64,000 nt of DNA from an uncultured Methanosarcinaceae archaeon (GTDB taxonomy: Archaea; Halobacteriota; Methanosarcinia; Methanosarcinales; Methanosarcinaceae), in NCBI GenBank assembly GCA_963727895.1, contig CAVSHT010000011.1, forward strand, positions 1 to 64,000, given 5' to 3'. Position 1 is the first letter of the stretch. Each line of letters starts with the position of its first letter. The notes beneath the pieces are model-generated. The model worked only from the letters and a program-made list of their open reading frames with translations, was not told where the DNA came from and searched no databases. The position numbers and the translations under genes were made by a program. Of this stretch, positions 8,417 through 36,338 are shown in pieces.

Positions 8417-8527
8417 AGTAAATAAAAGTAAAAGATAAAAATTAAAAGATAAAAGTAAAGATCAAACGGTGAAAGGTAAAAAATAAAAATTAAGTTTGGG
8501 GATGTGAGTAATTTTGGGGGTATTAGT

Positions 8528-15656: not shown

Positions 15657-16595
15657 TTATATACAGCCATTACAACTGGAACAGTCCTCGCAGGATTTTG
15701 CTTTCATATAGTTACCACGCATGATTAAGAATTTGCATTCAGCTATCCTGTAGACGGTCTCTTTGGTACCATCATTAATTCTTACAGTATCATTATCAAA
15801 GACAAGCTTTATCGGTACTGCTTCAAACTCAGTTGTCAAGCCAGGCCTTAGCTTTGGATAAATTATTTCTTTTTCTCCGCTTTTTTTCCGAACTGTGATG
15901 GTGTCGAAAGTCGTGACAGAAGTTAATCTGCCTCTTTCGTCAAATCGCACGGAGTTTTTATCCGCATCAATGCCCAGTGCATCTGCATCATATGCATTTA
16001 TTGGGCCAATAGGGGTTTTAATAATGTATGGTTCTGCGGGTTCTACAGACTCTAGACTTCCATCTTCAAAAAGCTTGAACCCTATCCGAACGGGCATTTT
16101 TCCTACAGGCGTGTCAATCATAATTTGTTCATTAGACCACAAAATCAGGCTTTTAATTTTTCCGTTATGATAAAATCTTAAACCTATTATTTTTGAACAA
16201 AAATCTCCAAATGGAAATGAAAAATTAAATTTTTGTGCTAATTCTCCTTCTTCTTCTTCCGACCAAAAACCACTGATTTGGCCATTTAAAGGAAACATAC
16301 TATTAATCGAGCCATCTTCAAAAAAAGTGACCAATTCAACTGGAAATGTTCCTATTGGTGTTCTTATTTCTGTTTGCTGCTCTAATGAAACGTTTTTAAT
16401 TTTTCCATTTTTATAAAAAGACAAAGCTGCTAACTGCTTTTTTCGGAATCCTGGATTACCGTACTGCGGCACAAGATCTCCGTATTTTGTGTTAATTAAA
16501 TTATACTCTTCAAATTTACAGTCCTTCAGTTCGCCACTATCATATGTAGTAAAGCTTGTTATTCCTTTGAGCCCACTTTTTTCAACAGTTAACAT
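15657..16595 (-). CDS. Hypothetical protein with repeated F(Y/F)xxGx(I/L) beta units and a C-terminal Cys cluster
   Basis: Long ORF with AGGATGG RBS; repeated units FYKNGKIK, FFEDGSI, FYHNGKIK, TPIG; ends CEDCSSCNGCI. Confidence 0.7.
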   Translation of the reverse strand: MLTVEKSGLKGITSFTTYDSGELKDCKFEEYNLINTKYGDLVPQYGNPGFRKKQLAALSFYKNGKIKNVSLEQQTEIRTPIGTFPVELVTFFEDGSINSMFPLNGQISGFWSEEEEGELAQKFNFSFPFGDFCSKIIGLRFYHNGKIKSLILWSNEQIMIDTPVGKMPVRIGFKLFEDGSLESVEPAEPYIIKTPIGPINAYDADALGIDADKNSVRFDERGRLTSVTTFDTITVRKKSGEKEIIYPKLRPGLTTEFEAVPIKLVFDNDTVRINDGTKETVYRIAECKFLIMRGNYMKAKSCEDCSSCNGCI

Positions 16596-16831
16596 TATGA
16601 CCATCCTATTGAATTGGATCCAATTATTTACTTTATATCTCGAGACAATTGTGTACAATATTCTAGTGCTGCACCAATCATATACTATTGGATAAAACCA
16701 TAAACACAACATTTTACTATTGATACTGCACTAGTTCTCGCAAGAAACTGTAGGATCCTTTACTATACTTTTTACTTCATTTCTCAAGCCTAAATATTTC
16801 ATATTAGTTTTGTGTTTGTTATGTTATTTAT

Positions 16832-17977
16832 TCAGAAGTAAGAGCTATGTAAATAAGGACCCTTATTCCCCATAAATATTTTAAGAATATATTCCAGAAA
16901 ATACTCATTTGTAGACTTACTATTGTGATCAATTTTCACTTTATCCGGATAAAGCATTTTCGCAGTCCACAAAAGTCCCATCAGCGATTGTGTCCTATCA
17001 AGCATCTCGTATTTTGTAGATGCATAAACGCGCTTCTTTACAGCAGCAATGTCTTTCCATGCATTACTCGAGAGAATTTCATCTCGACCTTTCGAAGTTT
17101 TAGTAATAATAACATCTGGATTCCATCGATAGATTTGTTCCAGAGGAACCTGAATTTCCTCACTTGTATTGACTGATTCCAGTTGCGGATTTGCTTCCAT
17201 GAAGCTTATTCCTCTTGCCAAACTGATAATCGAAGCCATTATGGTTCTGGATCCAACCGTTTGGGTGACACCTGATTGCGCATAATATACTTTTAACTTA
17301 TCACTTTCATTAATTTGAGATGTTTGATCTGTAACTTTTTTGATGGTTTCGTCCCAATAATCTCCAAGCCCATTTCCTTCTTCTTCATTTCCAACAATTT
17401 TACCAATTAATCTCCATGAATCTGCAATATCTTTAAGCGTATCTTTCGATGCAGCAACGAACGGAATGCCAACTTTTTTTTGTTCAGATTCGATTTTTGT
17501 ATCCTTTGTTAATGTTATTACTACCTGAGGATTGACAGCTAAAAGATCTTCCCAGTTCATATCACCGTGGAATTCTCCATTAACTGGGAGAGTCAACAGC
17601 TTCTTTTGTTCATCTTCGGACATAAATTCAAGCCTTTCGGTAAACTGTTTGTCAACGCTCACAAGTTTGTTTGGTGCCAATCTCCATACTATTTGACACG
17701 GTATCGGATGTAGTACTGAAATATTATTAATCTCAACAGGCAATGTGACTTTTCTACCTGATAAATCGGTGACTACCCGAGTATCTGACAGTTTAGTATT
17801 AGAGATTATTGTTTCTTGCTTGTTATTTGCGGAAGTATTTATATCAGCCTTGGAATTTGAATTTATTTCCGCAACGTTGCCTGTCTTCTGTAAGCATCCA
17901 CTTATAAGCATCATAGATAGCGTTATAATCAGACACATTGTGATTAACAGATATACCGACTTTTTTGCTGTTCTCAT
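16832..17977 (-). CDS. ABC substrate-binding lipoprotein, Fe-chelate/cobalamin (helical backbone) class
   Basis: Lipobox ISGC, VTDLSGRKVTLP, EQIYRWNPDVII, AAVKKRVY, GLLWTAKMLYPD; the C-terminal tail looks atypical. Confidence 0.85.
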   Translation of the reverse strand: MRTAKKSVYLLITMCLIITLSMMLISGCLQKTGNVAEINSNSKADINTSANNKQETIISNTKLSDTRVVTDLSGRKVTLPVEINNISVLHPIPCQIVWRLAPNKLVSVDKQFTERLEFMSEDEQKKLLTLPVNGEFHGDMNWEDLLAVNPQVVITLTKDTKIESEQKKVGIPFVAASKDTLKDIADSWRLIGKIVGNEEEGNGLGDYWDETIKKVTDQTSQINESDKLKVYYAQSGVTQTVGSRTIMASIISLARGISFMEANPQLESVNTSEEIQVPLEQIYRWNPDVIITKTSKGRDEILSSNAWKDIAAVKKRVYASTKYEMLDRTQSLMGLLWTAKMLYPDKVKIDHNSKSTNEYFLEYILKIFMGNKGPYLHSSYF

Positions 17978-18071
17978 TTTAATATCCCTTTAATAGTTTT
18001 TGAGTCATCCCAAAACTTACGATTTATCCCTTTGATGACCTAGTTTGAATTTAGTTCTAATTTTCGTAGGT

Positions 18072-18093
18072 GATATGTAATTTTAAGCATAAT
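18072..18093. promoter_or_regulatory. ModE-like operator box
   Basis: GATATG-N10-CATAAT, next to a TATA-like element (18100-18107) facing the binding-protein gene. Confidence 0.5.
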
Positions 18094-18390
18094 AAATAGT
18101 TATATATGATTAACACAGCAATTAATTACCGATTAAGTATTATATATACATTATTACATGTTCATCTTATACGTTTTCAGGTAATATATGGAATTAAAGA
18201 GAAAGCTGCCTAATTAATCATATCAAAACGATAATTGCAGGATCACATAAGAACATATTTCACCAGTATAGATGCCTGATCAATTCTTTTTTATTCGCTT
18301 GAAATCTCATCTAAAAAAGAGGCGTTTATGGAAAGTTTTTTATATAAAAACATAAGAATTCAAGTACTGGCATTTATAAATATATAGGTT

Positions 18391-18412
18391 GTTATGTATG
18401 GGATAACATAAC
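18391..18412. promoter_or_regulatory. ModE-like operator box (perfect palindrome)
   Basis: GTTATG-N10-CATAAC directly downstream of TTTATAAATATA (18373-18384), ahead of the permease gene. Confidence 0.65.
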
Positions 18413-18593
18413 CAGTATAAAAACCTGCAAAAATTTAAATTTAAAAATACAACACATTAAATTTACACAGTAATACCAAAAATCAGTGAAAGAGGCTTTG
18501 AACTACCTATCATTTGAATTCAATAAATAATCTGAAAAAAATACTTCTAAATAATCCATGGATAATTCGTAAACATCTGGTGTGGAAAAAATA

Positions 18594-19625
18594 ATGAACA
18601 AACACATAAACAGGAAAATCATTAAAAATATTTCTTTAACAACCGCGCTAATTTTACTGCCAGTTCTTCTCTTTTTTGTATCCTTTATGATTGGCAGGTA
18701 TCCAGTATCCCCTATAGATGTCATACTGGCTATTGTATCGGTTTTTGTGCCTATAACTACAAACTTAGATTCAACCATTTATACAGTAGTTTGGGATATA
18801 CGTCTTCCCCGTATAGTAGCTGCAATGATAGTTGGTGCAGCTCTTTCAATCTCAGGAGCTTCTTTTCAGGGAACTTTCCAAAATCCACTTGTTTCTCCAG
18901 ATATATTGGGTGTTTCAGCTGGTGCAGGTTTTGGGGCTGCAATAGCTTTGTTATCCAGTTTTTCCATGGTAATGATTCAGGTTACATCCTTTTTATTTGG
19001 TCTTATTGCAGTTATTCTCACATATTCTCTCAGCAAAAGACTCAAAGGTAATACAGTTCTGATGATGGTACTGGGAGGGATAGCTATCTCAGCACTCTTT
19101 TCAGCTTTTATTTCCTGTATCAAGTATCTGGCAGATCCAGACAGCAAACTGCCAGAAATTGTATACTGGCTTATGGGTAGCCTCTCTGAAGTTAATAGTA
19201 GCAGTATATTGATGATTATAGGCCCTGTTCTCATTGGATTTATAGCACTGTTGCTAATTGGATGGAGAATTAATGTTCTTTCAATGGGAGACGATGAAGC
19301 GCGTTCATTGGGCGTAAACACAGAGAAAATGAGGCTGTTTGTTATTCTTTGCTGTACACTTTTAACAGCCTCAGCTGTAAGTATAAGTGGTATCATTGGC
19401 TGGGTGGGTCTTGTAATACCTCATGCAGCCAGAATGATTGTGGGTCCGAATTACAGAAAACTTTTGCCTGCAAGCATTTCATTGGGAGCTACTTTCCTCC
19501 TGTTGGTTGACGATGTTTGCAGAACAGCCACGTCTATTGAAATCCCTCTGGGAATAATAACAGCAATCATAGGAGCGCCTGTTTTTATATACTTACTCCA
19601 AAAAGGCTACGAGGGATGGGCATGA
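18594..19625 (+). CDS. FecCD/BtuC-family ABC permease
   Basis: IRLPR, FQNPLVSPDILGVSAGA, EARSLGV, GWVGLVIPH, PLGIITAIIGAP. Confidence 0.92.
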   Translation: MNKHINRKIIKNISLTTALILLPVLLFFVSFMIGRYPVSPIDVILAIVSVFVPITTNLDSTIYTVVWDIRLPRIVAAMIVGAALSISGASFQGTFQNPLVSPDILGVSAGAGFGAAIALLSSFSMVMIQVTSFLFGLIAVILTYSLSKRLKGNTVLMMVLGGIAISALFSAFISCIKYLADPDSKLPEIVYWLMGSLSEVNSSSILMIIGPVLIGFIALLLIGWRINVLSMGDDEARSLGVNTEKMRLFVILCCTLLTASAVSISGIIGWVGLVIPHAARMIVGPNYRKLLPASISLGATFLLLVDDVCRTATSIEIPLGIITAIIGAPVFIYLLQKGYEGWA

Positions 19626-20413
19626 ACAACATAATGGATATCAAGGATGCAGAATTCTCTTATAATGAGAAAAAAAGTATCTTCAAAAATGTGAGTTTCT
19701 CAATTGAAAAGGGAGATGTTTTTTGTATTTTAGGTCCTAATGGAACCGGAAAATCGACTTTAATCAAATGTATGAACAGCCTGCTTAAACTGAAAAGTGG
19801 CAGGATATCACTGAAAAATAAAAATATATATTCAATGAAAGAAATCGATATTGCAAAAATCATTGCATACATCCCACAATCAAATAATTCTGTTTTTGCT
19901 TTTTCAGTTTTCGACATAGTGCTGATGGGCAGAACTCCTCATTTGAATTTGACATCTGTTCCTGGGAAAAATGACTACAAAATTGCTGAAGAAGCTTTGA
20001 AAAATCTTGGAATCTTGCACCTGAAAAATAAAACCTACACTGAGATCAGTGGTGGTGAAAGACAGCTTGTTTTAATGGCAAGAGCAATAGCTCAACAGCC
20101 CGAAATACTTCTTCTCGACGAACCAACATCCCATCTGGATTTTGGAAACCAGATACGAACGCTCAAAATCATAAAGGAATTGGCTAAAACTGGACTATCA
20201 GTTGTAATGACTTCACATTTTCCAGACCACGCTTTCCTATCCTGTAATAAAGTAGCCATCATGAATCAGGGAACAATTATGGAAATAGGAAAACCAGAAT
20301 TTGTCGTCACAGAAAATAATATGAAACAAGCCTATGGAGTTGATGTCAGAATTATAGATGTAGATGAAAATAGAAGATCATGCATACCTATGCAAATACA
20401 AGAATCATGTTAA
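19622..20413 (+). CDS. ABC ATPase, FecE/BtuD-type
   Basis: Walker A GPNGTGKST, ISGGERQ, LLLDEPTSHLD; overlaps the permease stop (ATGA). Confidence 0.92.
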   Translation: MNNIMDIKDAEFSYNEKKSIFKNVSFSIEKGDVFCILGPNGTGKSTLIKCMNSLLKLKSGRISLKNKNIYSMKEIDIAKIIAYIPQSNNSVFAFSVFDIVLMGRTPHLNLTSVPGKNDYKIAEEALKNLGILHLKNKTYTEISGGERQLVLMARAIAQQPEILLLDEPTSHLDFGNQIRTLKIIKELAKTGLSVVMTSHFPDHAFLSCNKVAIMNQGTIMEIGKPEFVVTENNMKQAYGVDVRIIDVDENRRSCIPMQIQESC

Positions 20414-20511
20414 TATAGAGTTTCTAATTTGTCCACAACTATAATTTTAAATTTATGCATTAGTCAAGTACAAACAATTCAAGTAAAGCCAATATCAGGA
20501 GAGGAATTGAA

Positions 20512-21620
20512 CTGAAACAAAATGTTAAAATTTCAATTGTAGATTATACGATAAATGAGATCTTGCGCCTGGGTTTTAATAGTCCTGCTGATTTTAAGTT
20601 TATTCTATCTGTCTTGAAGAAATATTCACTCGACGTAGCAGACATCTCGCTGAAGAATTTCGAAAAAAATGTGGTTAAATTTGAAACTGATGACTTTTCA
20701 GAAAATTTAAGATGCATAGTAGGATGTACCACGCAAGAGATCTTAAATGCAAAAGAACTTGGTTTTTCTAAAATAGTAATCAATATTTCTCTTGATCCAT
20801 CAGTCTCCATATATGACTTACTTAAATCAGTTGAACCGGTATTGCAAACAGTTTGTATTAATGATTGCGAAATATATCTGAGTATTGATAACGCTCTGGA
20901 AAGCCTATTAGAAGAAATAGATCCTTTATACTCATTTATTGTGGAATACAAAATAAAAAGGTTGATATTGGGCGACATAAATGGAAAAATAGACCCTTTC
21001 ACTACCTATGATAAGCTTAACCTTTTTATGAATATGGTTCAATGCCCTATTGAGTATAGAGGATGTAATGATTATGGAATGGCTACGGCAAATACCCTTT
21101 CAGCATTAAGAGCAGGCATTGAGTATGTAGCAACTTCAGTTAGTGGTATTGGGGTTCCAGGAGTTGCAGCCATGGAAGAGGTCTTAATGGCAGCAAAGCA
21201 TTTGTGGAAAAATGAGCAAATACCTAATGGTTATACTATTTCGACAGATTGTGAAAATATCTTACAAAAAGCCGGTATTATATTGCCTGGAGAAAAAGCC
21301 TTAATAGGGAAAAATGTATTCGCACATGAATCTGGTATCCATGTTGACGGTGTTATCAAAAATCCAAACTTATATGAAGTGATTAAACCTAAAGAGGTTG
21401 GCCTAAGAAGGTTTTTAGTGATTGGAAAACATTCAGGGACGGCATCTTTAATACAAAAGTTTAGACAACTGAATCTATTTTTAAGTCCACAGGAAGCAGG
21501 TACATTGCTTGATAAAGTAAGAAATATTGCGATTTTGCAAAAAAGCCAGTGACAGATTCTCAACTTAAAATCCTTTACAATTTATACATGGGATTGGCAA
21601 AAGAATCGAATATTCATTGA
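20512..21620 (+). CDS. nifV: Homocitrate synthase omega-type subunit (frameshift in an A-run near 21541)
   Basis: Degenerate N-terminus (IVDYTINE in place of DTTLRDGEQ) but intact C-terminal NDYGMATAN, FAHESGIHVDG, IGKHSG; continues KPVTDSQLKILY after the shift; probable CTG start. Confidence 0.7.
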
Positions 21621-21639
21621 GATAAAGGGGAAATTTCCT

Positions 21640-22499
21640 GTGACTCAAAATGAAAGTTTTGAAATCGTTGACACTACATTACGTGATGGTGAGCAATCTG
21701 CAGGTGTTGTGTTTTCGATTGAAGAAAGAATATCATTTCAGCTTTAGACAAAGCAAAAGTGAAATGGATCGAAGCCGGTATTCCCGCGATGGGCAAACAG
21801 GAATGTGAAGACCTGAAACTAATGCTCAAAATGCCAGTAAAATCGAACCTCATCGCATGGAACAGAGCAAATTTAGAAGATTTAAAGGCGTCCATTGAAT
21901 GCGGATTTAAATTTATTCACATATCTCTGCCGATATCTGAGCTGCATATAGAATACAAGCTTAAAAAGAACAGGGGCTGGGTACTGGATCAATTGAAGAA
22001 ATGCTTGAAGTATCTCAAAAACTATGGTTTAATGATTATTGTAGGAGCCGAAGATGCTTCAAGAACAGATCCAAAATTTTTTCTTCAATATGCAGAAATT
22101 GCAGCTTCTTTTGGAGCAATAAGAATCAGATATTCAGATACTGTAGGATGCCTGGATCATTTTACAACGTATCAAAATATCAAAAAAATTGTAGATCATA
22201 GCCCGCTTCCTGTTGAAACTCATGCACATAATGATTTAGGTCTGGCAGTAGCAAATACATTGGCAGCATACAGGGCAGGAGCAGAGTTTGCAAATGTAAC
22301 AGTAACAGGGCTAGGGGAACGTGCTGGAAATGCATCACTAGAAGAGACAGTAGTTTCATTAAAACACCTTTACAACTATGATTGTGGAATTGATCTTGAA
22401 ACTTTGTCGTCTCTAGCTGAAATAGTCTCAAAAGCCAGCGAAAAAACATTGTTTCCATATAAACCAATAGTTGGATCTTTAGCATCTGACAGATTTTAA
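21640..22499 (+). CDS. nifV: Homocitrate synthase alpha-type subunit (frameshift near 21730)
   Basis: GTG start, IVDTTLRDGEQSAG, IEAGIPAMG, GAEDASR, HAHNDLGLAVAN, GLGERAGNA; stops at KPIVG and lacks the HESGIH subdomain. Confidence 0.8.
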
Positions 22500-22648
22500 A
22501 AAATGATTTCATTGGATATATTTTAAAAATATATTTTGGAGTATTTTAATTAATTTTTCGTATTTAGTATACTTTCATTGATTTTTGATATTTGGTGTAT
22601 TTTAATTAATTCATATTTAGTGTACTTTCATCAACTTTTGATGTTTTT

Positions 22649-23164
22649 TTAATTCATATTTGTACAACTTTGATTATTTTGCTCGTTTTTTATTTTTTTT
22701 CTGTGAGCTACAAGCCCGCCATCATTAAGTATCTCAAGCAGAAAATCAGGTAATTTGCTCCCTTTAAATATGTCTCTATCTGAAACTATAACTTCGCCTT
22801 TAGCCAGATCAACTTTAACTTCATCTCCTTCCTGACATTCGATATCAACTTCTATAAGAGGTAGTCCAATATTGATTGCGTTTCTAAAAAAGATTCTGGC
22901 AAAAGACTTTGCTATAATACATGATACTCCTGCGTGTTTCAAAGCAAGAGGAGCCTGTTCTCTTGAAGACCCGCAGCCGAAGTTGGTGCCTGCAACAATA
23001 ATATCTCCAAACCTGAACTTCTTTGTGAATTCCGGATCAATTCCTTCCATTGCATGAGCTGCAAAGATTTGCACATCTTTGCTCCGCAAATACCTACCCG
23101 GAATTATATCATCAGTATTAACATTGTTTCCATATTTCCATATTCTTCCTACTATAAGACTCAT
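22649..23164 (-). CDS. 3-isopropylmalate/homoaconitate dehydratase small subunit (LeuD/HacB family)
   Basis: [40 protein letters not shown]. Confidence 0.9.
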
Positions 23165-23307
23165 AGAAATCACCCTACTTGAAAAATAATTTTTTAATAT
23201 TTAATACACATACTTTAGTAACTGTTCGCTTGTCTGTTTATTATAAGATTGCGAATACAAAGCTAAAAAGACTGAGTTAGTTAATGTATCTCAGCCTGAA
23301 AACACAC

Positions 23308-23334
23308 TTTGATGCCTTTTTGAAAAGCATCAAA
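23308..23334 (-). terminator. Hairpin after the binding-protein gene
   Basis: TTTGATGC...GCATCAAA inverted repeat. Confidence 0.4.
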
Positions 23335-23347
23335 ATTTTCACTAAAA

Positions 23348-24442
23348 TCATGGTGTCTGTGCGTTCAATATTTTTTGAACCTGCTCATCTGTAAGGCTAT
23401 AATTAAAGAAGGTTTTATAGAACCACTTTGTTTCATTATTTATATCAATAGATTTAAACAAGTCTGGATTGATGGTTTTTGCAGCCCATTGAATCTGAAG
23501 TGCTTGTTCGGCTCCAGCTCGACTCCATACGAACGCCCCTTCTGGATTCACAAAGACCTTGTTATTTTGAACTGCCTTAATTTTCTTCCAGCTCTTGCTG
23601 TTCATTATTTGTTCTTTCTCTTTAAATTTGGCGTTTACACTAAGAATTATTATATCAGGATTCCACTTCAATATTTGTTCCATTGAAACTTCCTGCGTAA
23701 TACCGCCTTTTACTTCTTCAGCTGCATTGACACCTCCTGCAGCTTCAATCCAGGCACTTACAGCAGTTCCACCGCCATCAACACATAAAGGCGACAGTGA
23801 AACGAGATGAAGAACCTTTGGTCTTTTATCATAAGGTATTTTGGATGAAACATTTGTTATTGATTTTAATTTGCTGTCCAGATACGCATTATATTCCTGT
23901 GCACGTTCTAAAGCCTCTTTGTCTCCCAATACATTTGCAGTCTCTAGAATACATTTTTTCATAAAATCAAAATTTGTAAAACTTACCTCTACAACAGGAA
24001 CTCCAAGACTGGATACTTTCTCAATATTCTTATCGAATTTTGGCATGAAAACAACATCTGGCTTGGTAGCAAGCAAAGCCTCCACATCATATGTTGGGCT
24101 TAATGTTGTAGCATTATAATAGGCCGGACAAACTTTATACATCCATGGTCTTTTTTGGGGACTGAACATTGTTGCAACAATCCGGTTATCAGCTCCAAGC
24201 ATCGCTAGCATTTCATTATGCCCCATCCAGGTATCTGCAACCCTTTCTACCTTTAAAGGAACTTTAACTTGTTTGCCTGCCGAATCAGTAACAGTTCTAG
24301 TTTCCTCACTGTTATTGTTTGAGGTTGATAAGTTTGTAGTGTTATTATGCGTTGCCGTTGTTTTTTCCCCTACACAACCAGAGAAAAATAATACTGACAG
24401 GATAGCGATAAATAAAATAGCTATTATTTTATTGTTCATCAA
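23348..24442 (-). CDS. ABC substrate-binding lipoprotein, Fe-chelate/cobalamin class (second paralog)
   Basis: Lipobox FSGC, VTDSAGKQVKVP, EQILKWNPDIII, AVQNNKVF, QWAAKTINPD, FYKTFFNY. Confidence 0.88.
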   Translation of the reverse strand: MMNNKIIAILFIAILSVLFFSGCVGEKTTATHNNTTNLSTSNNNSEETRTVTDSAGKQVKVPLKVERVADTWMGHNEMLAMLGADNRIVATMFSPQKRPWMYKVCPAYYNATTLSPTYDVEALLATKPDVVFMPKFDKNIEKVSSLGVPVVEVSFTNFDFMKKCILETANVLGDKEALERAQEYNAYLDSKLKSITNVSSKIPYDKRPKVLHLVSLSPLCVDGGGTAVSAWIEAAGGVNAAEEVKGGITQEVSMEQILKWNPDIIILSVNAKFKEKEQIMNSKSWKKIKAVQNNKVFVNPEGAFVWSRAGAEQALQIQWAAKTINPDLFKSIDINNETKWFYKTFFNYSLTDEQVQKILNAQTP

Positions 24443-24642: not shown

Positions 24643-25149
24643 TTACTTGCTTTTTTGCTCCCTCAAAGTTTGCAAATATTTTAGTCCTCTTTCAATAGTG
24701 TAACAATATTCAATGCAATCGATTCCTAACTCCTTGAGTTTTTTCTGTGCCTCCAATCCAATTTTCATTGAAAGCACAAAATCACAATCTGAGATAGTTT
24801 CTATTGCATTTATTTTTCCATGACATTCGTCATTGGAATCGTCGCATTTGTCGCAGTATTTTTTTGTCGAACGTGTTTCAAGAAACTTATAATCCTGACC
24901 TATTACCTCAAAAATCATAAAATCCGTTGTTTGCCCAAAATGCTGGTCAACGAGTTTCCCTCTTTTTGAAGTAACTGCCACTTTGAATATCTCAGAGTCA
25001 TAACTTTCATTATTGCTCTTTATATCCTGTCCAAGAATATAGTCTAAAATTCTCCCCAGATGTGTTTCATTCAATAAGTCTATGGAGTTTGCTTGCAGTG
25101 CTGCAGATATTTGTATATTGTTTTTTGAGAGTGTGCATTCGCAGTCCAT
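24643..25149 (-). CDS. NifX/NifB-C-terminal (cofactor-carrier) domain protein
   Basis: KVAVTS..VDQHFG..F.IFEV..DCDFVL..KIG; directly follows vnfN. Confidence 0.8.
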   Translation of the reverse strand: MDCECTLSKNNIQISAALQANSIDLLNETHLGRILDYILGQDIKSNNESYDSEIFKVAVTSKRGKLVDQHFGQTTDFMIFEVIGQDYKFLETRSTKKYCDKCDDSNDECHGKINAIETISDCDFVLSMKIGLEAQKKLKELGIDCIEYCYTIERGLKYLQTLREQKSK

Positions 25150-25173
25150 ATCATCATCACAGTTTATAGTAAA

Positions 25174-26514
25174 TTACAGATATTCTTCCCAGTTGATCTG
25201 TTTTGAACGCAGAGCCATTTCCCAGTCATTTGCAACGTTTTCCAAAAAATTCAGCATACCTTCGTATCCGAAATATGCCCTGTTCAAGTAGTTTTGTCTA
25301 TTTGTCGGGCTAAAAACGTCAAATGCAAACTTTATCCCAAGTTCTTCAGCCAGATAATACTCCCATGAAGAACCGAATACAGCATCTACATTGCTGTCCA
25401 TCAATGACTTTTTTATCTGATACCCATCAGCTGAAAAAACAACCTTTGGAGAGATTCCCATATCGTTAAGCTCATTTTCCAGCAATAACTGAGAGTCAGA
25501 CACAGGCGACCTGAAAAGCAAAAGTTCCGGAATCATTTCCAGCTCTTCAAATAACATTCTTGTCAGGCCGATTCCAATGGTTGCATCCGCAGAAACCGCT
25601 ACTCTGCAGTTACGGTACCTGGGAATCATCATCAATCCCCTGCGTCTCAGCACGTCAATGGCCATAGTTTCTCCGTCTGTTATTATCGCCTCGACTTTTT
25701 CTTCTACGTCAAAATATTTTCCTACTTCACGAAGCCATCTTGCAGTATTTTTAAGTCCTATGGGAAGTGGAATTTCCGACATTATAAGAGGTATGTCATG
25801 TATTTTCTGCATTTTTAATCCAAACTTATACCCCACATCATGACTGAGAAGGATATTTGCCGATGCTAGCCCAGCATTGTTCAATTCTTCCAGAGACGTA
25901 TCGTGAGGAAGCACAGCCTGAACTCGAATACCTACTTTTTCTAGAGTTTCATGTATCCATTTCAAATCAGCCCACCAGGTAGGATTCAGGTTTGCCTGGG
26001 GAGCTATTAAGTTCACAGTTTTTGAAATTTTTTCATTCTGTTTTTTTATAAATGGTAATAGTGCATCCAGTCCTAACTCAATGCCATCATAAAGATTTCC
26101 TCGAAATCCTCCTGCCATCAAGGGAATAAGTTTCGCATTAATCTGTGGCTGGATATTTCGACATAAACCCTCAATATCCTCACCAATTATATCGGCTGCA
26201 CATGTACCAACTACAAATATAGCCCTGGTTTTAAATTTGGAATCGGCTTCTTCAATTAATTTTTTTAGCTTTCCTGAAGCACCCATAACCACATCTGTTT
26301 CAAAAAGCCTGGTGCATGCAACTTTTCTGTTCGTAAAATCGATTTCATGGACATCATAAGCTGCAGCAACTGTTGAAGAACAACCCTGTGGAGAATGTAT
26401 AACAATACTAATGTCCTTAATACCAGCCAGCACTCCGGTGGCACCTTCAAGAGCACATCCGACCATTGGATCCCTGCTATTGTTGCAGTTCTCGAATTTT
26501 AACTCATCATACAT
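25174..26514 (-). CDS. vnfN: V-nitrogenase cofactor scaffold subunit VnfN
   Basis: Nitrogenase component-1 fold (GCALEG, HSPQGC, GTC), YFGYEG; position after vnfE. Confidence 0.8.
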   Translation of the reverse strand: MYDELKFENCNNSRDPMVGCALEGATGVLAGIKDISIVIHSPQGCSSTVAAAYDVHEIDFTNRKVACTRLFETDVVMGASGKLKKLIEEADSKFKTRAIFVVGTCAADIIGEDIEGLCRNIQPQINAKLIPLMAGGFRGNLYDGIELGLDALLPFIKKQNEKISKTVNLIAPQANLNPTWWADLKWIHETLEKVGIRVQAVLPHDTSLEELNNAGLASANILLSHDVGYKFGLKMQKIHDIPLIMSEIPLPIGLKNTARWLREVGKYFDVEEKVEAIITDGETMAIDVLRRRGLMMIPRYRNCRVAVSADATIGIGLTRMLFEELEMIPELLLFRSPVSDSQLLLENELNDMGISPKVVFSADGYQIKKSLMDSNVDAVFGSSWEYYLAEELGIKFAFDVFSPTNRQNYLNRAYFGYEGMLNFLENVANDWEMALRSKQINWEEYL

Positions 26515-28031
26515 TTTCCTCTTCCCCTTCCTGCAGCGTAGATTGTGCAATCCGGCAAATCTTGAGCCAGTTTCGGTGTAAGAGACCGGGCAGAACATAG
26601 ACCTGAGTCTTCAGGAAATACTATCTTTTTCATTACCCAGCTACGTGGTCTGAAAGAATACTCAAGAGCTGTGCAGATACATTTAGCTACCTTTAGGGCT
26701 CCCCTATAGCCAAATCTTGGACGGTTCAATATAGCGTTTAAATCAACTACAGGGATATTTGGGAAGCTCATCGATGATCCAAAATATACGGTTCTTTCTG
26801 GATTTATACCTCCAAGATATTCCATCAGCTCATTTTCAGTCTGAACCATTGACTCGTATTTTCCAAAGGCGAGTGTACCTTTCGTAATCAAGATTTCTGG
26901 ATCAAGACCGGTCTCCAAGAGATAATCAATACTTGTTTCTCTTGCCTGCGTACTCCATGGATGGAAATTGTATATAACCGTCCGCATATCAAAATCGCGT
27001 TCGAGCATATGAGCAATTGACAATGCCTTTATAGCATCATGCCCTTCAACAATTGCCATCTTGCCTGCAAGGTATCTTTTTGCTTCTTCAAATTCAAGGC
27101 GTATGGCTTCATATTCTCGTTTAATCAGTTCTTCCGCCTCAGTTTCCATATGTAGATACTTTGCTGCCTCTCTTAACCACCTTTCAGTTGCACTTATACC
27201 ATACGGAAGAATTGTGGAGTTCAAAGGAGTATCAAACTGATCAAGCATTTCTCTTCCTATCGCATACCCAAGATCAAGACAAAGGGTACAATTTACTGCC
27301 ACACTTGGAGCTTGTTTTATTTCGGCTAGGGAACAATTACCTGCTATTACAGCATTTACACTTGCACCCATGCCTTCTATTAACCGTTTCAACTCTTTAA
27401 CATCGGTTTCAATCTCAGTCCTTTCTGGACCCATTTTGCCCCCTACGATGTTGACAGAGTGTGAAAGTTTTGCTCTACTTTCTGGGTCAGGCTTATCCAT
27501 AAGCTGAACAATTTGTCTGAAAACCAGGTCAAATCCGCTTCTGTATTCTCCTGCAAAGCCTTCACAGTGAATAGCCATTATTTCTGCGTTAATTTTGGGC
27601 TTTATTTTATTCACTACGGCATCTACATAATCTCCAATTATTCCGGTGGCACAGCTTGTTGCGACGAAAATAACATCAGGCTTATACTTGCTGTCTACTT
27701 CAACTATAGCACTTTTCAGTTCTTTTTCGCCACCGTATACAATGGCTTTTTCGTCAATATTTGTAGTAATAATGGACTCATAAGGAGAACCACTATTTCT
27801 GCAATTTGTCAGCTTGTAAGCCTGTTTAACTCCAAATGCGCAGCCACTGGGACCATGAGCAATAACAATACTGTTTTTAATACCGCTTAAAATCTTCATT
27901 GCTGTCCAGAATTTACATGGACGGGTATGGCTGCCCTGAAGTTTCGTTTCAATTTTTCCTTCTTTGGCTAATTGATAAAGTTCGCTTAAATGCCCATAAA
28001 ATACTACACTCTCATTAGCAATGCCGGCCAT
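26499..28031 (-). CDS. vnfE: V-nitrogenase cofactor scaffold subunit VnfE
   Basis: RPCKF, HGPSGC, TSCATGIIGD, HCEGF, FGYRGA; downstream of vnfDGK. Confidence 0.8.
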   Translation of the reverse strand: MAGIANESVVFYGHLSELYQLAKEGKIETKLQGSHTRPCKFWTAMKILSGIKNSIVIAHGPSGCAFGVKQAYKLTNCRNSGSPYESIITTNIDEKAIVYGGEKELKSAIVEVDSKYKPDVIFVATSCATGIIGDYVDAVVNKIKPKINAEIMAIHCEGFAGEYRSGFDLVFRQIVQLMDKPDPESRAKLSHSVNIVGGKMGPERTEIETDVKELKRLIEGMGASVNAVIAGNCSLAEIKQAPSVAVNCTLCLDLGYAIGREMLDQFDTPLNSTILPYGISATERWLREAAKYLHMETEAEELIKREYEAIRLEFEEAKRYLAGKMAIVEGHDAIKALSIAHMLERDFDMRTVIYNFHPWSTQARETSIDYLLETGLDPEILITKGTLAFGKYESMVQTENELMEYLGGINPERTVYFGSSMSFPNIPVVDLNAILNRPRFGYRGALKVAKCICTALEYSFRPRSWVMKKIVFPEDSGLCSARSLTPKLAQDLPDCTIYAAGRGRGKCMMS

Positions 28032-28107
28032 ATTCCCCTCTATTTTCTATTCATGAATTTTTCAACCAAAAAAAATAAAAAATTTGTTGATAGCATTAGC
28101 TACAATT

Positions 28108-28791
28108 TTATGCCATCAAACAGGATATCCAGGCAACTACTGCTCCGAAAGCTGCTATAGAGGATAGTGTGGTTATATTCAGATTGCTCCTTTCACTTAA
28201 TTTTCCATCAGTTCCATTTCCATAATACTCGGAAAGGATAGTGACCAGGAGGCTTCCTACAACATAAAGGATAACGCCAGCACTAAGAGCCATAAGTGGT
28301 TTTGTGATGCTTTCAGGGATGGGCATAATCGCACCTACTGGAATTAACAGTGCGATCAAAGCTGCAACTGCAAATCTGGTTTTATCTTCTAACTCATCTA
28401 GCAATGAAAAAGAAACCATTCCTTCTGGCAGTTTGTGCAGAACTGCTCCAACTGCTAAAATCGGAGAAAGCGGTCCAAACTCAGTGGTTATGATTACACC
28501 TTCTGCAACGTTGTGAATCGCTAATCCTAAAACGGCTGAATACTTTCCAACACTTTTAGTATAGAATCCTACAGCAAACATTACAACGAACCCGATTGCG
28601 ACCAACCAGTATCCTACTGCAAAATCCTCAGTGGCATCCGGAATAATGTCCAGAAGAACCACTGTAATGGCAAAGCCAAGTCCAAGACAGGTCAATAACG
28701 TTCTTTTCGCAGAATCTTCTGTTTTATAATAAATCAAAGCTCCCAACAATTCCGCTATGACAAATGCTGCAACTACTAGATAATTATGCAT
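28108..28791 (-). CDS. ZIP-family divalent metal transporter
   Basis: Multi-TM protein with paired metal-site motifs HNVAEG and HKLPEG. Confidence 0.8.
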   Translation of the reverse strand: MHNYLVVAAFVIAELLGALIYYKTEDSAKRTLLTCLGLGFAITVVLLDIIPDATEDFAVGYWLVAIGFVVMFAVGFYTKSVGKYSAVLGLAIHNVAEGVIITTEFGPLSPILAVGAVLHKLPEGMVSFSLLDELEDKTRFAVAALIALLIPVGAIMPIPESITKPLMALSAGVILYVVGSLLVTILSEYYGNGTDGKLSERSNLNITTLSSIAAFGAVVAWISCLMA

Positions 28792-28805
28792 GTTTTTGTC
28801 TCCCC

Positions 28806-30206
<1,401 letters not shown>

Positions 30207-30210
30207 TTAG

Positions 30211-32006
<1,796 letters not shown>

Positions 32007-32378
32007 TTATTTTAAAGCTAGTTCCCCTTTTTCTCCAGTCCTGACCCTAACAACGTTGTCAAGAGACTCCACAAAAATTTTTCCATCACCAATCTGGGCA
32101 GTCTGATTGACTTCAATGATGGTTTTAATTACCTGATCCATATCTTCATCATTCACAACTACGCTCAGAAGTCTTTTTGGTATGTATTTCATACCTGTAC
32201 TGTACCTTTTTGCGAGCAACCTTGGTTGTATGTAAAAATTGAGCTCTCCTGAAATTCCTCTTTGCTTACCCTTACCTAATACCGGAATTGCCGTCATAGA
32301 GGGAAAGCCAATTTTATCCAGTGCGTCTTTTGTAGCCGACATCTTGTTGGGTCTGATAATCGTGGTAATTTCTTTCAT
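32007..32378 (-). CDS. nifI2: PII-family nitrogenase regulator NifI2-type
   Basis: IIRP, GKGKQ, PKR, GDGKIFV, RVRTGE. Confidence 0.92.
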   Translation of the reverse strand: MKEITTIIRPNKMSATKDALDKIGFPSMTAIPVLGKGKQRGISGELNFYIQPRLLAKRYSTGMKYIPKRLLSVVVNDEDMDQVIKTIIEVNQTAQIGDGKIFVESLDNVVRVRTGEKGELALK

Positions 32379-32424
32379 ATGAAAACATCCCGGTTTTCAA
32401 AATTTTTAGCTTCCAGATTATTGC

Positions 32425-32742
32425 TCATAATCCTCTTTCACCCGAGCTAATTGTGTATGCATCGTCGATAGTATTCACAAATATTTTTCCGTCTCCCATA
32501 TTACCGGTGTATGCTTTTCCGGAAATTATTTTTATTATCTCGTCAACAGATTCGTCTTCTACAGCCATCATGATCATTGTTTTTGCGAGTTCATCGTAAT
32601 GCACATCACCAACAGTGATCCCTTTTTGTTTCCCTCTTCCAAAAACGTTTATTTTTGTGAGGGAATAGTATCCAGCTTCTGCTAGTCCATCGGTTACTTC
32701 TTCGGTCCATTCAGGACGTAGTATTGCACGGATCATTTTCAT
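32425..32742 (-). CDS. nifI1: PII-family nitrogenase regulator NifI1-type
   Basis: MKMIRAILRPE, VFGRGKQKGI, GDGKIFV, AYTISSG. Confidence 0.93.
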   Translation of the reverse strand: MKMIRAILRPEWTEEVTDGLAEAGYYSLTKINVFGRGKQKGITVGDVHYDELAKTMIMMAVEDESVDEIIKIISGKAYTGNMGDGKIFVNTIDDAYTISSGERGL

Positions 32743-32760
32743 TTCTCATCTCTCCTTTAA

Positions 32761-33639
<879 letters not shown>

Positions 33640-33748
33640 TTACTTGAACTTCACATTTTTTAAGACAAATGAAATTTCTAAACAAAACTACAATTTTTCT
33701 CATTTATTGTCTACTCTAGTTTGTGTATTCCACATTATTTTTTTCTGT

Positions 33749-33770
33749 GATATGCTAGTCCAAACATAAC
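33749..33770. promoter_or_regulatory. ModE-like operator box in the vnfH leader
   Basis: GATATG-N10-CATAAC, downstream of the predicted vnfH TATA box. Confidence 0.6.
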
Positions 33771-33785
33771 ACTTATTTAGGTAAG

Positions 33786-33832
33786 CGGAATACAGACACC
33801 TATTTCCGTCTTAATAGTATATAATTATTTCG
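33786..33832 (-). promoter_or_regulatory. Predicted vnfH promoter (BRE/TATA) with an adjacent CGGAA...TTCCG inverted repeat
   Basis: Minus strand reads CGAAA-TAATTATATA, then CGGAA-N13-TTCCG over the expected start site. Confidence 0.5.
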
Positions 33833-33972
33833 CAGATTATGTTTGAATACCAAAAAATTAAAAGAGAAAAACTCTATAAAAATTAAATATAGGTATTGTA
33901 CAAAAAACAACTTATATTGCCTTTTTTTTAATATAAAGGAACAATTACTCCTAAACTTAATATTAATTTATT

Positions 33973-34207
33973 GTTATGTAATTATAAGCACAACATTTTC
34001 CTTGTATGAATGATTTATGGGCCTATAAAGTGAGTTTCACCAATAGAATTTGTCAAACCGTTATGCTTAAATAACCATAACATAAAAACTAAAACATAAA
34101 CATTTGACATCTTTAAGGTAAAAAATAAGAAAACCTTAAACTTCATATCTTGTGATATACCAGTTTTAATTAAATCCATAATATCATTATGTTAAAGTAA
34201 ACATAAC
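33973..34207. promoter_or_regulatory. Three further ModE-like boxes (33973-33994, 34060-34081, 34186-34207)
   Basis: GTTATG-N10-CACAAC; GTTATG-N10-CATAAC; ATTATG-N10-CATAAC. Confidence 0.6.
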
Positions 34208-34433
34208 AAATATTTCCTCTAAAACATGATTTAGATAGTGGTTTTCTTCCAAAATTGTCAAAATTACATATTTATATAAAAATAAATACAGTATTCTCTG
34301 AATGGCATATTAGTTCAAAAATGCCTAATTCGGAAAACTTCAAATTATACATGAAGCTGGAAGGCAAAAAATTCTCTGCCATGTACTTTAGGGCAATTCT
34401 GGCTTTATTGTGATATTGTTTGAGGGAGGTCAA

Positions 34434-36338
34434 ATGCAATGCAATATATGCGAAGTCGGATGTGAAATCAATAGATATGAAAGGGGCAGGTGTGGAACTT
34501 ATGTATGCACTGATGATAATACTATAATCCAGGACCCTGATATAGGATACCTTAGAGCAGATCCGATTTCAATAGAAGAAGTTCCTTTACTCCATTTTTA
34601 TCCTTCAGGAAAGTTCCTGCAAGTGTTCAGTACAGGATGTAACTTACAGTGCCCTGGTTGTGTGTCACGGATGCAAGCGTCAAGTAGACATTCGACTCAT
34701 CAAGCTTCACTTAGTCCATCTGATGTAGTAAAAAAAGCCTTACAGCAAGAGTGTCTGGGTATAGTTTCAACACTGAATGATCCTGTTGCTAATTATCACC
34801 TTTTTAGGGAGCTTGCAGTACAGGCACAAGAAAATAATTTGCTCGTAGGTTGTTCAACCAACTGCTATTTCACAAGTAAAATTTTAGAAGAATTTGGGCA
34901 GCTTGTAGACTTCGTGAACGTGGGAATTAAAGGTTATTCTGACAGGAGCTATAGAAATTGTGGAGCTCTTTCATCAGCCCCTGTTTTTCGAAATATTTCC
35001 AGACTTTATGATATCGGAGTGCATATTGAAGCTTCAGTTGTTTATTCTAAAGGGAATGAAAATGATGTAATAAATGTCGCAGAGGCAGTGTCCAATATTT
35101 CTTCTAGTATCCCATTGCACGTCATGAGATTCATTCCCTTAGGCTACGCTCCGATAGAACTAGAACCATCAATCGGAGAAGCAGAACAAATGTGTCCTTC
35201 TCTACACAAATATTTAGACTTTGTCTATCTCTTTAATTCGCCAGGTACTGACTTCCTGAATACCTACTGTCCTGAATGCGGCAGTCTCCTAATAGAACGG
35301 GAATTTAACAGACCTATTGGATCTCAGCTTGTAAAACCCTGGATGAATCATAAATGTAGTTGCGGTTACACCCTTCCAGTTAAGGAAAAAACCAACATTG
35401 AGAGTTTCATAAAAGCAGATTTCATAGACGATTACACTACAGGTCAAGCTTTCAGTATGGTTCATGCAGTGCTTACGTGTCTGGGAGTACTGGATGACTA
35501 CAAGTTGATGGATATATGGGGCGAAGATATACTAATGGATGTCTGGAATCAGGTCTCAGACCCCGAAACACTTACTCAAATTGATAATATGATAAGGCAG
35601 CCCTATTCTTATTTGGAGTTTATCAAATTTATTGCTGAAAAAGCGAATATGCCAGAAAAAGGGGAAGAACTTGTTTCTTTTATTCATGAGCGTTTGAAAA
35701 TTGTCCAGAATCTATCAGCAGGAAGAAGTAGTTATAATGTTTATTATTGCATGGGATCTCCTCTTTTTGCCCTGAATGCTGGAAGAATGGAAAATAACCT
35801 TGTTACATTTTCTGGAGGAGTGAGCATAAATAAGCAGCTTCAAAAGGAGGGGAAACTGGGTATAAATATTTCTCCTTCCTATATCAATGAGCACAATCCT
35901 GGGGTAATTTTTGTCTCAGGATTCCTTTCTCGTCCTCTCAATGAGTTTTATAGTTTATGCAAGGAATATGATATACATGCAGATGCTGTGACACAGCGAC
36001 GAATCTATGAAGTTTCACCTTCATGGGATTTCGGAAGCCCTCGCTGGATATTAGGACTAATGTACATAGCAGACAAGTTGCATCCAGGAAAACTTGGAGT
36101 TGACTTAATACAGGAAGCGGAAAATTTCTATTTGCAGTTTTATGGCATGCGATTTAAGGAAGCAAGGCCTAACAGGTCTTTACATAGGCCTTCATCTGGA
36201 ATTTGGTCACACACCCAGACACTCTATCACCCCTTCGAAATGGAGATGCCAAGGAATAATTATACTAAAAATATTAACAATGATATACTTCAACCTTTTA
36301 GCATCTTGCCAAATTATAATGTCAAGTTAAAAGGATGA
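34434..36338 (+). CDS. Radical SAM protein (PflA/AmmeMemoRadiSam-like) fused to a partial Fe-chelate binding-protein domain
   Basis: N-terminal CNICEVGC..C, CxxxCxxC (CNLQCPGC), TYCPECG; C-terminal VYY..NPGVIFV..AVTQRRIY..ILGLMYIADKLHP..FYLQFYG resembling the neighbouring binding proteins; GGAGG RBS. Confidence 0.8.
   Translation: MQCNICEVGCEINRYERGRCGTYVCTDDNTIIQDPDIGYLRADPISIEEVPLLHFYPSGKFLQVFSTGCNLQCPGCVSRMQASSRHSTHQASLSPSDVVKKALQQECLGIVSTLNDPVANYHLFRELAVQAQENNLLVGCSTNCYFTSKILEEFGQLVDFVNVGIKGYSDRSYRNCGALSSAPVFRNISRLYDIGVHIEASVVYSKGNENDVINVAEAVSNISSSIPLHVMRFIPLGYAPIELEPSIGEAEQMCPSLHKYLDFVYLFNSPGTDFLNTYCPECGSLLIEREFNRPIGSQLVKPWMNHKCSCGYTLPVKEKTNIESFIKADFIDDYTTGQAFSMVHAVLTCLGVLDDYKLMDIWGEDILMDVWNQVSDPETLTQIDNMIRQPYSYLEFIKFIAEKANMPEKGEELVSFIHERLKIVQNLSAGRSSYNVYYCMGSPLFALNAGRMENNLVTFSGGVSINKQLQKEGKLGINISPSYINEHNPGVIFVSGFLSRPLNEFYSLCKEYDIHADAVTQRRIYEVSPSWDFGSPRWILGLMYIADKLHPGKLGVDLIQEAENFYLQFYGMRFKEARPNRSLHRPSSGIWSHTQTLYHPFEMEMPRNNYTKNINNDILQPFSILPNYNVKLKG

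Follow-up and report, generated by a model that had tools for sequence, protein, structure and literature searches.

The window analysed here is the opening 64 kb of contig C11 in a Methanosarcina genome (3.67 Mb in 19 contigs, ~36.5% G+C) and carries the genes of a vanadium (V) nitrogenase, vnf, together with a type II ATP-binding cassette (ABC) importer whose role is the subject of this work. Gene coordinates are window coordinates unless another contig is named, and the listing of open reading frames (ORFs) was scanned with Pfam and NCBIfam. The vnf genes form a run on the minus strand (24643-33588) in the order vnfH-I1-I2-D-G-K-(ZIP)-E-N-X. NCBIfam places vnfH, the two P-II genes I1 and I2, vnfD, vnfG and vnfK at 28806-33588, and several equivalog cut-offs are exceeded: VnfD with 998.9 bits (cut-off 823.1), VnfK with 899.9 (873.95), VnfG with 176.5 (141.7) and NifH with 452.3 (394.35). 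Both Pfam and NCBIfam identify vnfE (26499-28031) and vnfN (25174-26598), and a gene for a NifX/VnfX-like cofactor carrier (24643-25149; Pfam Nitro_FeMo-Co) closes the run; alignments of orthologs to its product begin at about residue 48. A ZIP-like permease of 227 residues (28108-28791, minus strand) is encoded between vnfK and vnfE.

The importer set is complete, with a FecCD-family permease (18582-19625, plus strand; Pfam 315 bits), an ABC ATPase (19616-20413, plus; ABC_tran 107.5 bits) and two class III binding proteins of the lipoprotein-type Peripla_BP_2 family, here called binding proteins 1 and 2 (BP1 and BP2). BP1 (16832-17977, minus; Pfam 86.1 bits) is divergent from the permease, and BP2 (23348-24442, minus; 98.5 bits) immediately follows vnfENX on the same strand. 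Each begins with a signal peptide whose last residues, ...SGC, resemble a lipobox, and continues with a linker rich in Asn, Ser and Thr. Behind the ATPase are two NifV-like ORFs, NifVa and NifVb, and an extra small subunit of the LeuD/HacB type; the region is bordered by a Cys-tailed protein on one side and by a radical S-adenosylmethionine (SAM) fusion protein on the other. Every gene listed in a prior sequence-only reading of this DNA was found where that reading had placed it. The same holds for its statement that the window lacks an oxyanion-type binding protein: no ModA/WtpA-type (SBP_bac_11) protein occurs among window ORFs of at least 120 residues, and modA and modB are on other contigs. 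With no SBP_bac_11-type protein among the window ORFs, membership in the ModABC, VupABC or WtpABC systems was rejected.

The two divergent promoter regions share a palindrome fitting RTTATGT-N8-RCATAAY, with one exact copy in each (18391-18412 and 34186-34207), in agreement with what had been noticed from the sequence alone. This palindrome is the published ModE operator. The first strict box lies ~170 bp upstream of the FecCD start, and a box-like site with one mismatch (18072-18093) is found 95 bp upstream of the BP1 start. The second strict box lies between vnfH and the radical SAM gene, where three further sites (33749, 33973 and 34060) have one mismatch each. All six window sites with at most one mismatch are within the BP1/FecCD and vnfH/radical SAM intergenic regions, and allowing two mismatches gives seven sites, the seventh (13989) having two. 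The search at up to two mismatches yielded 13 strand matches against a shuffle mean of 5.57, a number reached in 4 of 100 shuffles. Genome-wide, six strict sites are present, compared with 0-1 (mean 0.08) in twelve first-order Markov random genomes. Of the other four, one precedes modB, one lies between modA and fmdB/fdh, and two paralogous importer operons each have one 55 bp upstream. Strict boxes also occur at the corresponding promoters of other Methanosarcina islands, the one at the permease promoter being kept in G004, G014 and G023; overall, the operators and the synteny are preserved across the five vnf islands.

These sites have close parallels in Methanosarcina acetivorans. The accessible part of the study of its ModE regulon (Chanderban & Lessner 2025, PMC12327845) describes several boxes in front of vnf, including one at 160 bp; in our genome the start of the nearest box (33749) is 161 bp from the vnfH start. 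The same part lists boxes upstream of vnf, anf, anfH, ma1204, ma1234-1224, ma1200-1197 and two mod operons, reports binding of ModE to the vnf, ma1234-1224 and ma1204 promoters in electrophoretic mobility shift assays, and gives derepression by CRISPR interference (CRISPRi) for the vnf and anf transcripts only. A ModE-like gene is present in our genome (C6:34978-35223); its product scores 58.9 bits with TIGR00637, below the cut-off of 98.5, and has a helix-turn-helix (HTH) domain and one TOBE domain, the architecture described for M. acetivorans ModE. Because both divergent promoters bear operators of this molybdenum (Mo)-responsive repressor, induction under Mo starvation is expected. A second palindrome, CGGAA-N13-TTCCG, is found at 33786-33810, ~200 bp upstream of vnfH and beside the ModE site at 33749, and may be bound by a nitrogen regulator.

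The distribution of the module was followed in 41 genomes, 25 from Methanosarcina (including our own, G000) and 16 from other genera of the same order. VnfD scores above its cut-off in five of them (G000, G004, G014, G019 and G023). Permease orthologs (82-89% identity) are found in all five and in none of the other 36, where the best match reaches 56%; they are absent from all 20 Methanosarcina genomes that lack vnf. BP2 orthologs (77-83%) are present in four of the five (our own, G004, G014 and G023, and not G019), the remaining 36 genomes having nothing above 35%. These genomes are kin, so that the counts are not independent and one deletion could remove neighbouring genes together. The synteny and phylogenetic profiling that the sequence-only reading had put forward as a check finds permease and BP2 orthologs confined to VnfD-positive genomes, a distribution that favours a vnf-specific role for the importer.

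The islands themselves are similar in content. By tblastn, the adjacent FecCD and ATPase genes, the extra LeuD gene, the Cys-tailed protein and a radical SAM gene are found in all five. BP1 is present in four islands (not in G014), with 75-78% identity in G004, G019 and G023, and a third type of binding protein occurs in those of G004, G014 and G019. G001, which has no VnfD above the cut-off, contains a remnant island (contig C230, 8573-14382) that keeps TraB, the Cys-tailed protein, NifVb, NifVa and NifX, along with no more of the radical SAM gene than its final 129 codons; vnf, the binding proteins, permease, ATPase and LeuD are gone. Gene content and operators together suggest that the module is a ModE-controlled accessory of the Methanosarcina V-nitrogenase island.

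We compared the importer with proteins of solved structure. The best relative of the permease is MolB/HI1471 (9.1e-73, 248.6 bits), ahead of HmuU (177), FhuB (173) and BtuC (139), a resemblance that is only partly specific because unrelated Methanosarcina FecCD paralogs also rank MolB first; the class name "MolBC-type" was dropped for this reason. By sequence, the nearest solved relatives are 4ovk (1.6e-35), MolA (1.1e-22) and 4hn9 for BP2, and 4pag, 4ovk and MolA for BP1. An AlphaFold model of BP2 (predicted local distance difference test 88.4, predicted template modelling score 0.82) was searched with Foldseek. Its neighbours are 4ovk, MolA in second place, 4hn9, YiuA (apo and with iron (Fe), Fe-dihydroxybenzoyl-Arg-Ser and Fe-nitrilotriacetic acid), 4pag, and Helicobacter pylori CeuE with Ni-(His)2. 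Sequence and model together place the binding proteins in the MolA/YiuA/CeuE subfamily, whose members bind small metal species. The residues invariant across 34 aligned members of the BP2 family include H75, W100, D222, W306, R308 and E312.

Beyond the genus, a protein search returned 347 relatives of BP2 at E<=1e-10. Members from Methanosarcina are 75-91% identical, and the next tier, at 60% or less, is found in Clostridium, Desulfitobacterium, Desulfosporosinus, Sporobacter and others. A scan of genome contigs with BP2 found only four loci, all from Methanosarcina. A metagenome scan with BP2 gave 77 loci, three of which, at 75-77% identity, bear vnf genes. A bacterial contig among the more distant loci, L028, combines vnfHDGKEN (VnfD at 77% identity, and VnfG) with a FecCD permease (55%) and ATPase, a BP1-like protein (54%) and a BP2-like protein (47%). 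Between the transporter operon and vnfN of this contig (12370-13317) lies a gene for a regulator with HTH and PBP_like domains, the latter resembling the molybdate-binding-type domain of PRK14498. The radical SAM protein of L028 was rejected as a counterpart of the fusion in the window, its homology being no deeper than superfamily level.

Among the 74 distant loci, tblastn places a FecCD gene next to the BP2 homolog in 33 and a UbiE-like methyltransferase gene in 6. Pfam analysis of 67 neighbour proteins from nine of these loci identified ModA-like SBP_bac_11 proteins (L025, L044), XdhC (L026), the FAD and 2Fe-2S subunits of a Mo-hydroxylase (L025), DUF364/DUF4213 and NTPase_1 proteins and, in three of the nine, a TonB-dependent receptor. 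Twenty-one of the 74 loci, all bacterial (282,713 bases), were scanned for riboswitches; neither a cobalamin nor a Moco riboswitch was found. The hits were a T-box, a lysine riboswitch and tRNAs, and no transporter gene had one of these upstream. ModE-type boxes in bacterial homolog loci amount to two chance-level sites with one mismatch each. The BP2 family is broad; most of its loci are not linked to vnf, and molybdenum-related genes recur around them.

NifVa (20563-21552, plus strand) and NifVb (plus strand) were assigned with Pfam, NCBIfam and motifs. NifVb is in a single frame in G014 and G023. In our assembly its N-terminal piece, with the substrate/metal motif TTLRDGEQ (21607-21747), is out of frame with the HMGL-type catalytic barrel (21759-22499); this frameshift may be an assembly error, because many other genes of the genome are split. 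Neither ORF alone reaches the full-length NifV cut-off of TIGR02660 (462.9), both being partial: NifVa scores 185.5 bits over profile positions 131-353, and NifVb 297.7 bits over positions 40-276. In NifVa, RxC replaces HxH and the GERAGNA motif is missing, while the HESGIH C-terminal subdomain is intact; NifVb retains the HAHND metal motif and stops just short of the C-terminal subdomain. The catalytic motifs RDGEQ, HxH and HESGIH are complete only in the two proteins together, which complement each other and jointly form one complete homocitrate synthase. The sequence-only reading had counted two homocitrate synthase genes; two NifV-like ORFs are indeed present, as complementary partial genes and not as whole synthases. 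A simple frameshift split of one gene was rejected, since the profile ranges overlap and G014, G023 and G001 each retain the two as distinct ORFs. The homocitrate synthase of Clostridium pasteurianum is reportedly split into NifV-omega and NifV-alpha. As in that case, two adjacent genes cover one NifV, as a catalytic barrel and a C-terminal part; unlike in C. pasteurianum, the gene for the C-terminal part comes first here and includes a degenerate half-barrel that overlaps the profile range of its partner. NifVa occurs in 4 of the 41 genomes (our own, G023, G014 and G001), and the pair in three of the five vnf islands (our own, G014 and G023).

The extra LeuD/HacB-type subunit (22649-23173, minus strand) scores 234 bits with LEUD_arch and 215.8 with HacB2 (cut-off 230). 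Within the genus, a third LeuD/HacB copy is found only in the five VnfD-positive genomes and in the anf-only genome G018, where it lies beside anfH. The ZIP-like protein contains the motifs HNVAEG and HKLPEG and scores 34.7 bits with Pfam Zip, for which the cut-off is 35.1; most of its listed homologs bear a precomputed PF02535. Its gene lies inside the vnf operon in two of the five islands, our own and that of G023, and the other 39 genomes have no homolog at E<=1e-5. The family is rare (62 clusters among 5.8 billion proteins), its named members coming from M. barkeri Wiesmoor, Clostridium sp., Lucifera butyrica and an Azospirillaceae metagenome-assembled genome. The Cys-tailed protein, hyp351 (15657-16712, minus strand; 351 residues), has MORN-like repeats and a C-terminal CxxCxxCxxC. 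Its orthologs align from residue 27-40 onward, and its true start is probably ~37-40 codons further in.

The gene divergent from vnfH (34410-36338, plus strand) encodes a fusion of 642 residues. Its radical SAM N-terminal part is AmmeMemoRadiSam/PflA-like (101 bits, cut-off 220) and its C-terminal domain weakly Peripla_BP_2-like (4hn9, E 1.2e-5; Pfam, E 0.0098); among 120 listed homologs, at least 24 bear a precomputed PF01497. The family is also found in Methanolobus, Methanothrix, Methanococcoides, Methanococcus maripaludis and some anaerobic bacteria. Literature searches for a radical SAM/Peripla_BP_2 fusion and for the PDB entries 4ovk, 4pag and 9hrj returned nothing relevant, and the fusion, which is widespread in methanogens and occurs with type II importers, is apparently unstudied. 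Because a cytoplasmic enzyme is fused to a binding-protein domain, processing of an imported organic or complexed ligand inside the cell is suggested.

Two paralogous operons elsewhere in the genome (L001 at C3:12411 and L004 at C13:178495) encode, in order, a binding protein, a SAM methyltransferase, a radical SAM/binding-protein fusion, a FecCD permease and an ATPase. These are the operons with a strict ModE box 55 bp upstream, and the type is also present in vnf-lacking Methanosarcina. The binding protein of L001 matches 4pag (6e-56) and MolA (1.5e-27). By sequence, these operons look like a Mo-regulated import-and-processing system that is so far unstudied. Their combination of a binding protein, a methyltransferase and a radical SAM enzyme may be likened to anaerobic heme breakdown by ChuW, which would favour iron as the substrate of such importers.

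A working model can be put forward from these observations. On exhaustion of Mo, ModE would leave its operators at the two divergent promoters and two gene sets would be switched on. The first would comprise vnfH-I1-I2-DGK-(ZIP)-ENX followed by BP2, with the radical SAM fusion transcribed divergently, and the second BP1 on one side and, on the other, the FecCD permease and ATPase followed by the two-subunit homocitrate synthase. Working with two lipid-anchored binding proteins here, and with two or three in relatives, the importer would supply the heterometal needed to assemble the FeV cofactor: vanadium, in any soluble form that anoxic water holds. Within the cell, assembly of the cofactor would be aided by the split NifV, the extra HacB-like subunit, VnfX and the Cys-tailed protein. 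We infer the operon structure, the direction of transport (import) and the metal from the gene content, operators, synteny and co-distribution observed.

That the substrate is vanadium seems to us a reasonable assignment whose chances fall somewhat short of even. More doubtful, and best treated as tentative, is the fuller proposal in which the FecCD permease, the ATPase, BP1 and BP2, with the ZIP-like protein where present, would constitute the first dedicated V acquisition system of an archaeon or strict anaerobe, the binding proteins recognising reduced or complexed V and not vanadate, and the radical SAM fusion freeing or processing the imported complex in the cytoplasm. The sequence-only reading had suggested that these genes may import a V or Fe chelate; a vnf-tied transporter under predicted Mo control is supported, with vanadium as a candidate for its metal.

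A number of observations weigh against vanadium. No experiment and no residue pattern singles it out. The permease offers little discrimination, as two unrelated FecCD paralogs of G014 also match MolB best (220 vs 187 and 212.6 vs 194). According to the available portion of a recent preprint, the ligand of MolA is held by K221 and R264 and by Y114 via water, with Y301 nearby (bioRxiv 10.64898/2026.10.15.759412). When these positions are mapped onto the printed alignments as chain index plus 21, an inferred offset, K221, R264, Y114 and Y301 correspond to T, K, F and R in BP2 and to a gapped region, S, T and a gap in BP1; the L001 binding protein keeps only Y114. Because the invariant residues of the BP2 family include Asp and Glu beside Arg, His and Trp, the site is unlike a pure oxyanion site. 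The radical SAM fusion, by its sequence, suggests that the ligand is organic and undergoes processing in the cell, and members of its family are common among vnf-lacking methanogens such as M. maripaludis.

Distribution also contributes to the case against vanadium. The tie of the transporter to vnf, implicit in the sequence-only reading, stands for close orthologs (5/5 vs 0/36) and fails for distant BP2 homologs: 73 of the 74 loci with homologs of 35-54% identity have no vnf and, among the 36 of these that are at least 15 kb long, 35 lack vnf and only L028 has it. The Cys-tailed protein is found in 11 of the 41 genomes, including the vnf-lacking G001, G006, G007, G013 and G020, and so is the radical SAM family, including the vnf-lacking G006, G009, G010, G021 and G022, where the copies are 65-70% identical paralogs in operons of the binding protein-methyltransferase-radical SAM-FecCD type. 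Both findings weaken the interpretation given in the sequence-only reading. Finally, the co-distribution could be hitch-hiking of neighbours in one island inherited by kin.

Iron supply is an unlikely alternative that nonetheless deserves serious attention: by importing an Fe chelate or heme, the transporter would cover the additional Fe that making V- and Fe-only nitrogenases requires. For M. acetivorans this interpretation has been published, and it, too, speaks against vanadium; the accessible sections of PMC12327845 label ma1234-1224 and ma1200-1197 as Fe ABC transporters and propose more Fe uptake on Mo depletion, a label that in those sections rests on annotation only. BP2 is weakly like IsdE (48 bits, NCBIfam), the ATPase scores 202.6 bits against a heme ABC ATPase model, the Fe-chelate binder YiuA is a structural neighbour of BP2, and a TonB-dependent receptor is encoded at Gram-negative homolog loci (6 of 74, tblastn). 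Control by the Mo sensor ModE counts against iron. So do the 20 vnf-lacking genomes of the genus, all of them iron-requiring and all without orthologs, and the anf-only genome G018, which would be expected to have the same extra Fe demand and has no permease match at E<=1e-60.

Scavenging of Mo or tungsten (W) is rather unlikely. Here the importer would be a second route, derepressed with modABC and catching forms that ModA cannot bind, such as thiomolybdate or complexed Mo; the available part of one study reports thiolated Mo to be bioavailable to a methanogen (PMC11484787). The importer shares its ModE boxes with modB and modA of the same genome, the molybdate/tungstate binder MolA is the second-best match of BP2, in sequence and in structure, and of the L001 binding protein, and Mo-related neighbours are found at the bacterial loci L025, L044, L026 and L028. 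Against this, the K221/R264 pair of MolA is not kept in BP1, BP2 or the L001 protein, no Moco riboswitch was found in the 21 bacterial loci, and orthologs occur only where vnf does, though nitrogenase-type matches well below the VnfD cut-off, presumably from Mo-nitrogenase, are present in nearly all Methanosarcina sampled. A paper on alternative Mo sources in M. maripaludis names no FecCD-type transporter in its accessible part.

The closest characterised system on this side is MolBC-A of Haemophilus influenzae (HI1470/71/72), a type II molybdate/tungstate importer whose mol operon is repressed by molybdate, as stated in the available part of its description (PMC4031551). The likeness lies in MolB as best solved relative of the permease, a rank that it also holds for unrelated paralogs, in MolA as second-best match of BP2 and Mo-linked repression; unlike in MolBC-A, the ligand residues of MolA are not kept and there are two or three binding proteins per permease. 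The sequence-only reading named VupABC and ModABC as known uptake systems and had overlooked this FecCD-class importer.

Uptake of an unrelated cofactor, a corrinoid or another tetrapyrrole, by a transporter that merely neighbours vnf is improbable. FecCD and Peripla_BP_2 proteins are the B12/heme importer class, the best NCBIfam model for the permease is BtuC (227 bits, cut-off 461), and some bacterial neighbourhoods include DUF364/DUF4213 genes. Similarity to BtuF is marginal (E 1.3e-5, 24.5 bits, cut-off 234), which, with the lack of a cobalamin riboswitch in the 21 bacterial loci scanned, led us to reject membership in BtuFCD; the explanation also leaves ModE control and the strict co-occurrence with vnf unaccounted for. 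Hardly credible is the version proposed in the sequence-only reading, in which a homocitrate or citrate-like acid made by NifV leaves the cell as a vanadophore and is taken up again as a V chelate: FecCD, ATPase, NifVa and NifVb do lie on the same strand behind one ModE-controlled promoter, and the invariant Arg, His and Trp of the BP2 family would suit a carboxylate chelate, but the NifV pair is missing from two of the five importer-bearing islands (G004 and G019), G001 keeps the pair without the importer, Pfam and NCBIfam scans show no exporter in the island, and homocitrate, a known cofactor ligand, is enough to explain the presence of NifV.

Vanadium uptake as such has precedents of two kinds. 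VupABC of Anabaena variabilis is an ABC system for vanadate uptake that serves V-nitrogenase, is linked to vnf, is repressed by Mo and uses an oxyanion-type binding protein; in this last respect the window, which has no such protein, differs. In Azotobacter, catechol siderophores are said, after work by Bellenger and colleagues in 2008, to serve as Mo and V metallophores, and so to offer a precedent for V taken up as a chelate by siderophore-type routes. Azotobacter is aerobic and its secreted ligands are known, whereas no genes for ligand biosynthesis or export were found here. The binding proteins share a structural subfamily (Foldseek E 1e-18 to 1e-21) with those of Yersinia YiuABC and H. 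pylori CeuE/FecDE, which bind small complexes of metals, namely Fe with a catecholate fragment or nitrilotriacetic acid, and Ni-(His)2; YiuA and CeuE differ in having only 21-24% identity, other metals and a bacterial periplasmic setting.

The arrangement most similar to ours is that of M. acetivorans, whose ModE regulon, in the accessible part of its description, includes vnfHI1I2DGKENX, ma1234-1224 ("Fe ABC transporter" and NifV) and the radical SAM gene ma1204 (PMC12327845). The two share the genus, the operator motif, multiple boxes upstream of vnf, and FecCD, ATPase, binding proteins, NifV pair and a radical SAM gene divergent from the nitrogenase Fe-protein gene; G014 shows the M. acetivorans layout. 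In our genome, unlike in M. acetivorans, anf is not beside vnf, BP1 is divergent from the permease, in place of a third type of binding protein downstream of the ATPase, and the vnf operon contains the ZIP-like gene. The anf cluster is on contig C7 (40001-58000), with anfH followed by anfK-G-D-I2-I1 on the opposite strand; it adjoins a ModA-like gene and an ABC ATPase, and its anfH copy is 94.5% identical to vnfH.

Some features of the sequence itself were also recorded. At the 3' end of vnfD (30558-30646), a tandem duplication of 44-45 nt produces the 15-residue C-terminal tail twice (SPMWSLA.KD....V), and VnfD of G019 and G023 aligns only up to residue 462. The convergent gap between the NifVb and LeuD-like genes (22529-22662) contains three direct repeats of ~53 nt, a related 24-nt copy of which is found inside BP1 at 17303. 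Genes split by a frameshift or stop are found at 8504-9881, 55623-56787 and 21607-21759 of the window and at C3:207203-211267, and those broken across the genome include nifD and nifK of the Mo-nitrogenase, fdhA, NifVb, a glycosyltransferase, an AMP-binding enzyme and two FecCD genes. This widespread splitting reflects either an error-prone assembly (completeness 84%) or gene decay.

For M. acetivorans, the layout of the cluster has already been described as belonging to the ModE regulon, under an iron label; a literature search on its locus tags returned only that paper (PMC12327845), which in its accessible part proposes iron uptake without discussing vanadium uptake. New here are the restriction of the permease to VnfD-positive genomes, the position of BP2 behind vnfENX, the bacterial contig L028, the subfamily of the binding proteins, the complementarity of the NifV pair and the ZIP-like gene. 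Our literature searches found no other candidate for vanadium uptake in methanogens and no account of how anaerobes acquire V for V-nitrogenase, only cyanobacterial VupABC; a preprint on M. acetivorans nitrogenase mentions transport once, for ModABC. The island thus provides a short list of candidates whose distribution tracks vnf. Because these have orthologs in M. acetivorans, where CRISPRi and conditions for V-nitrogenase expression exist, the question is directly testable. Should the substrate prove to be Fe or Mo, it would still become clear what is imported through the ModE regulon when Mo is lacking.

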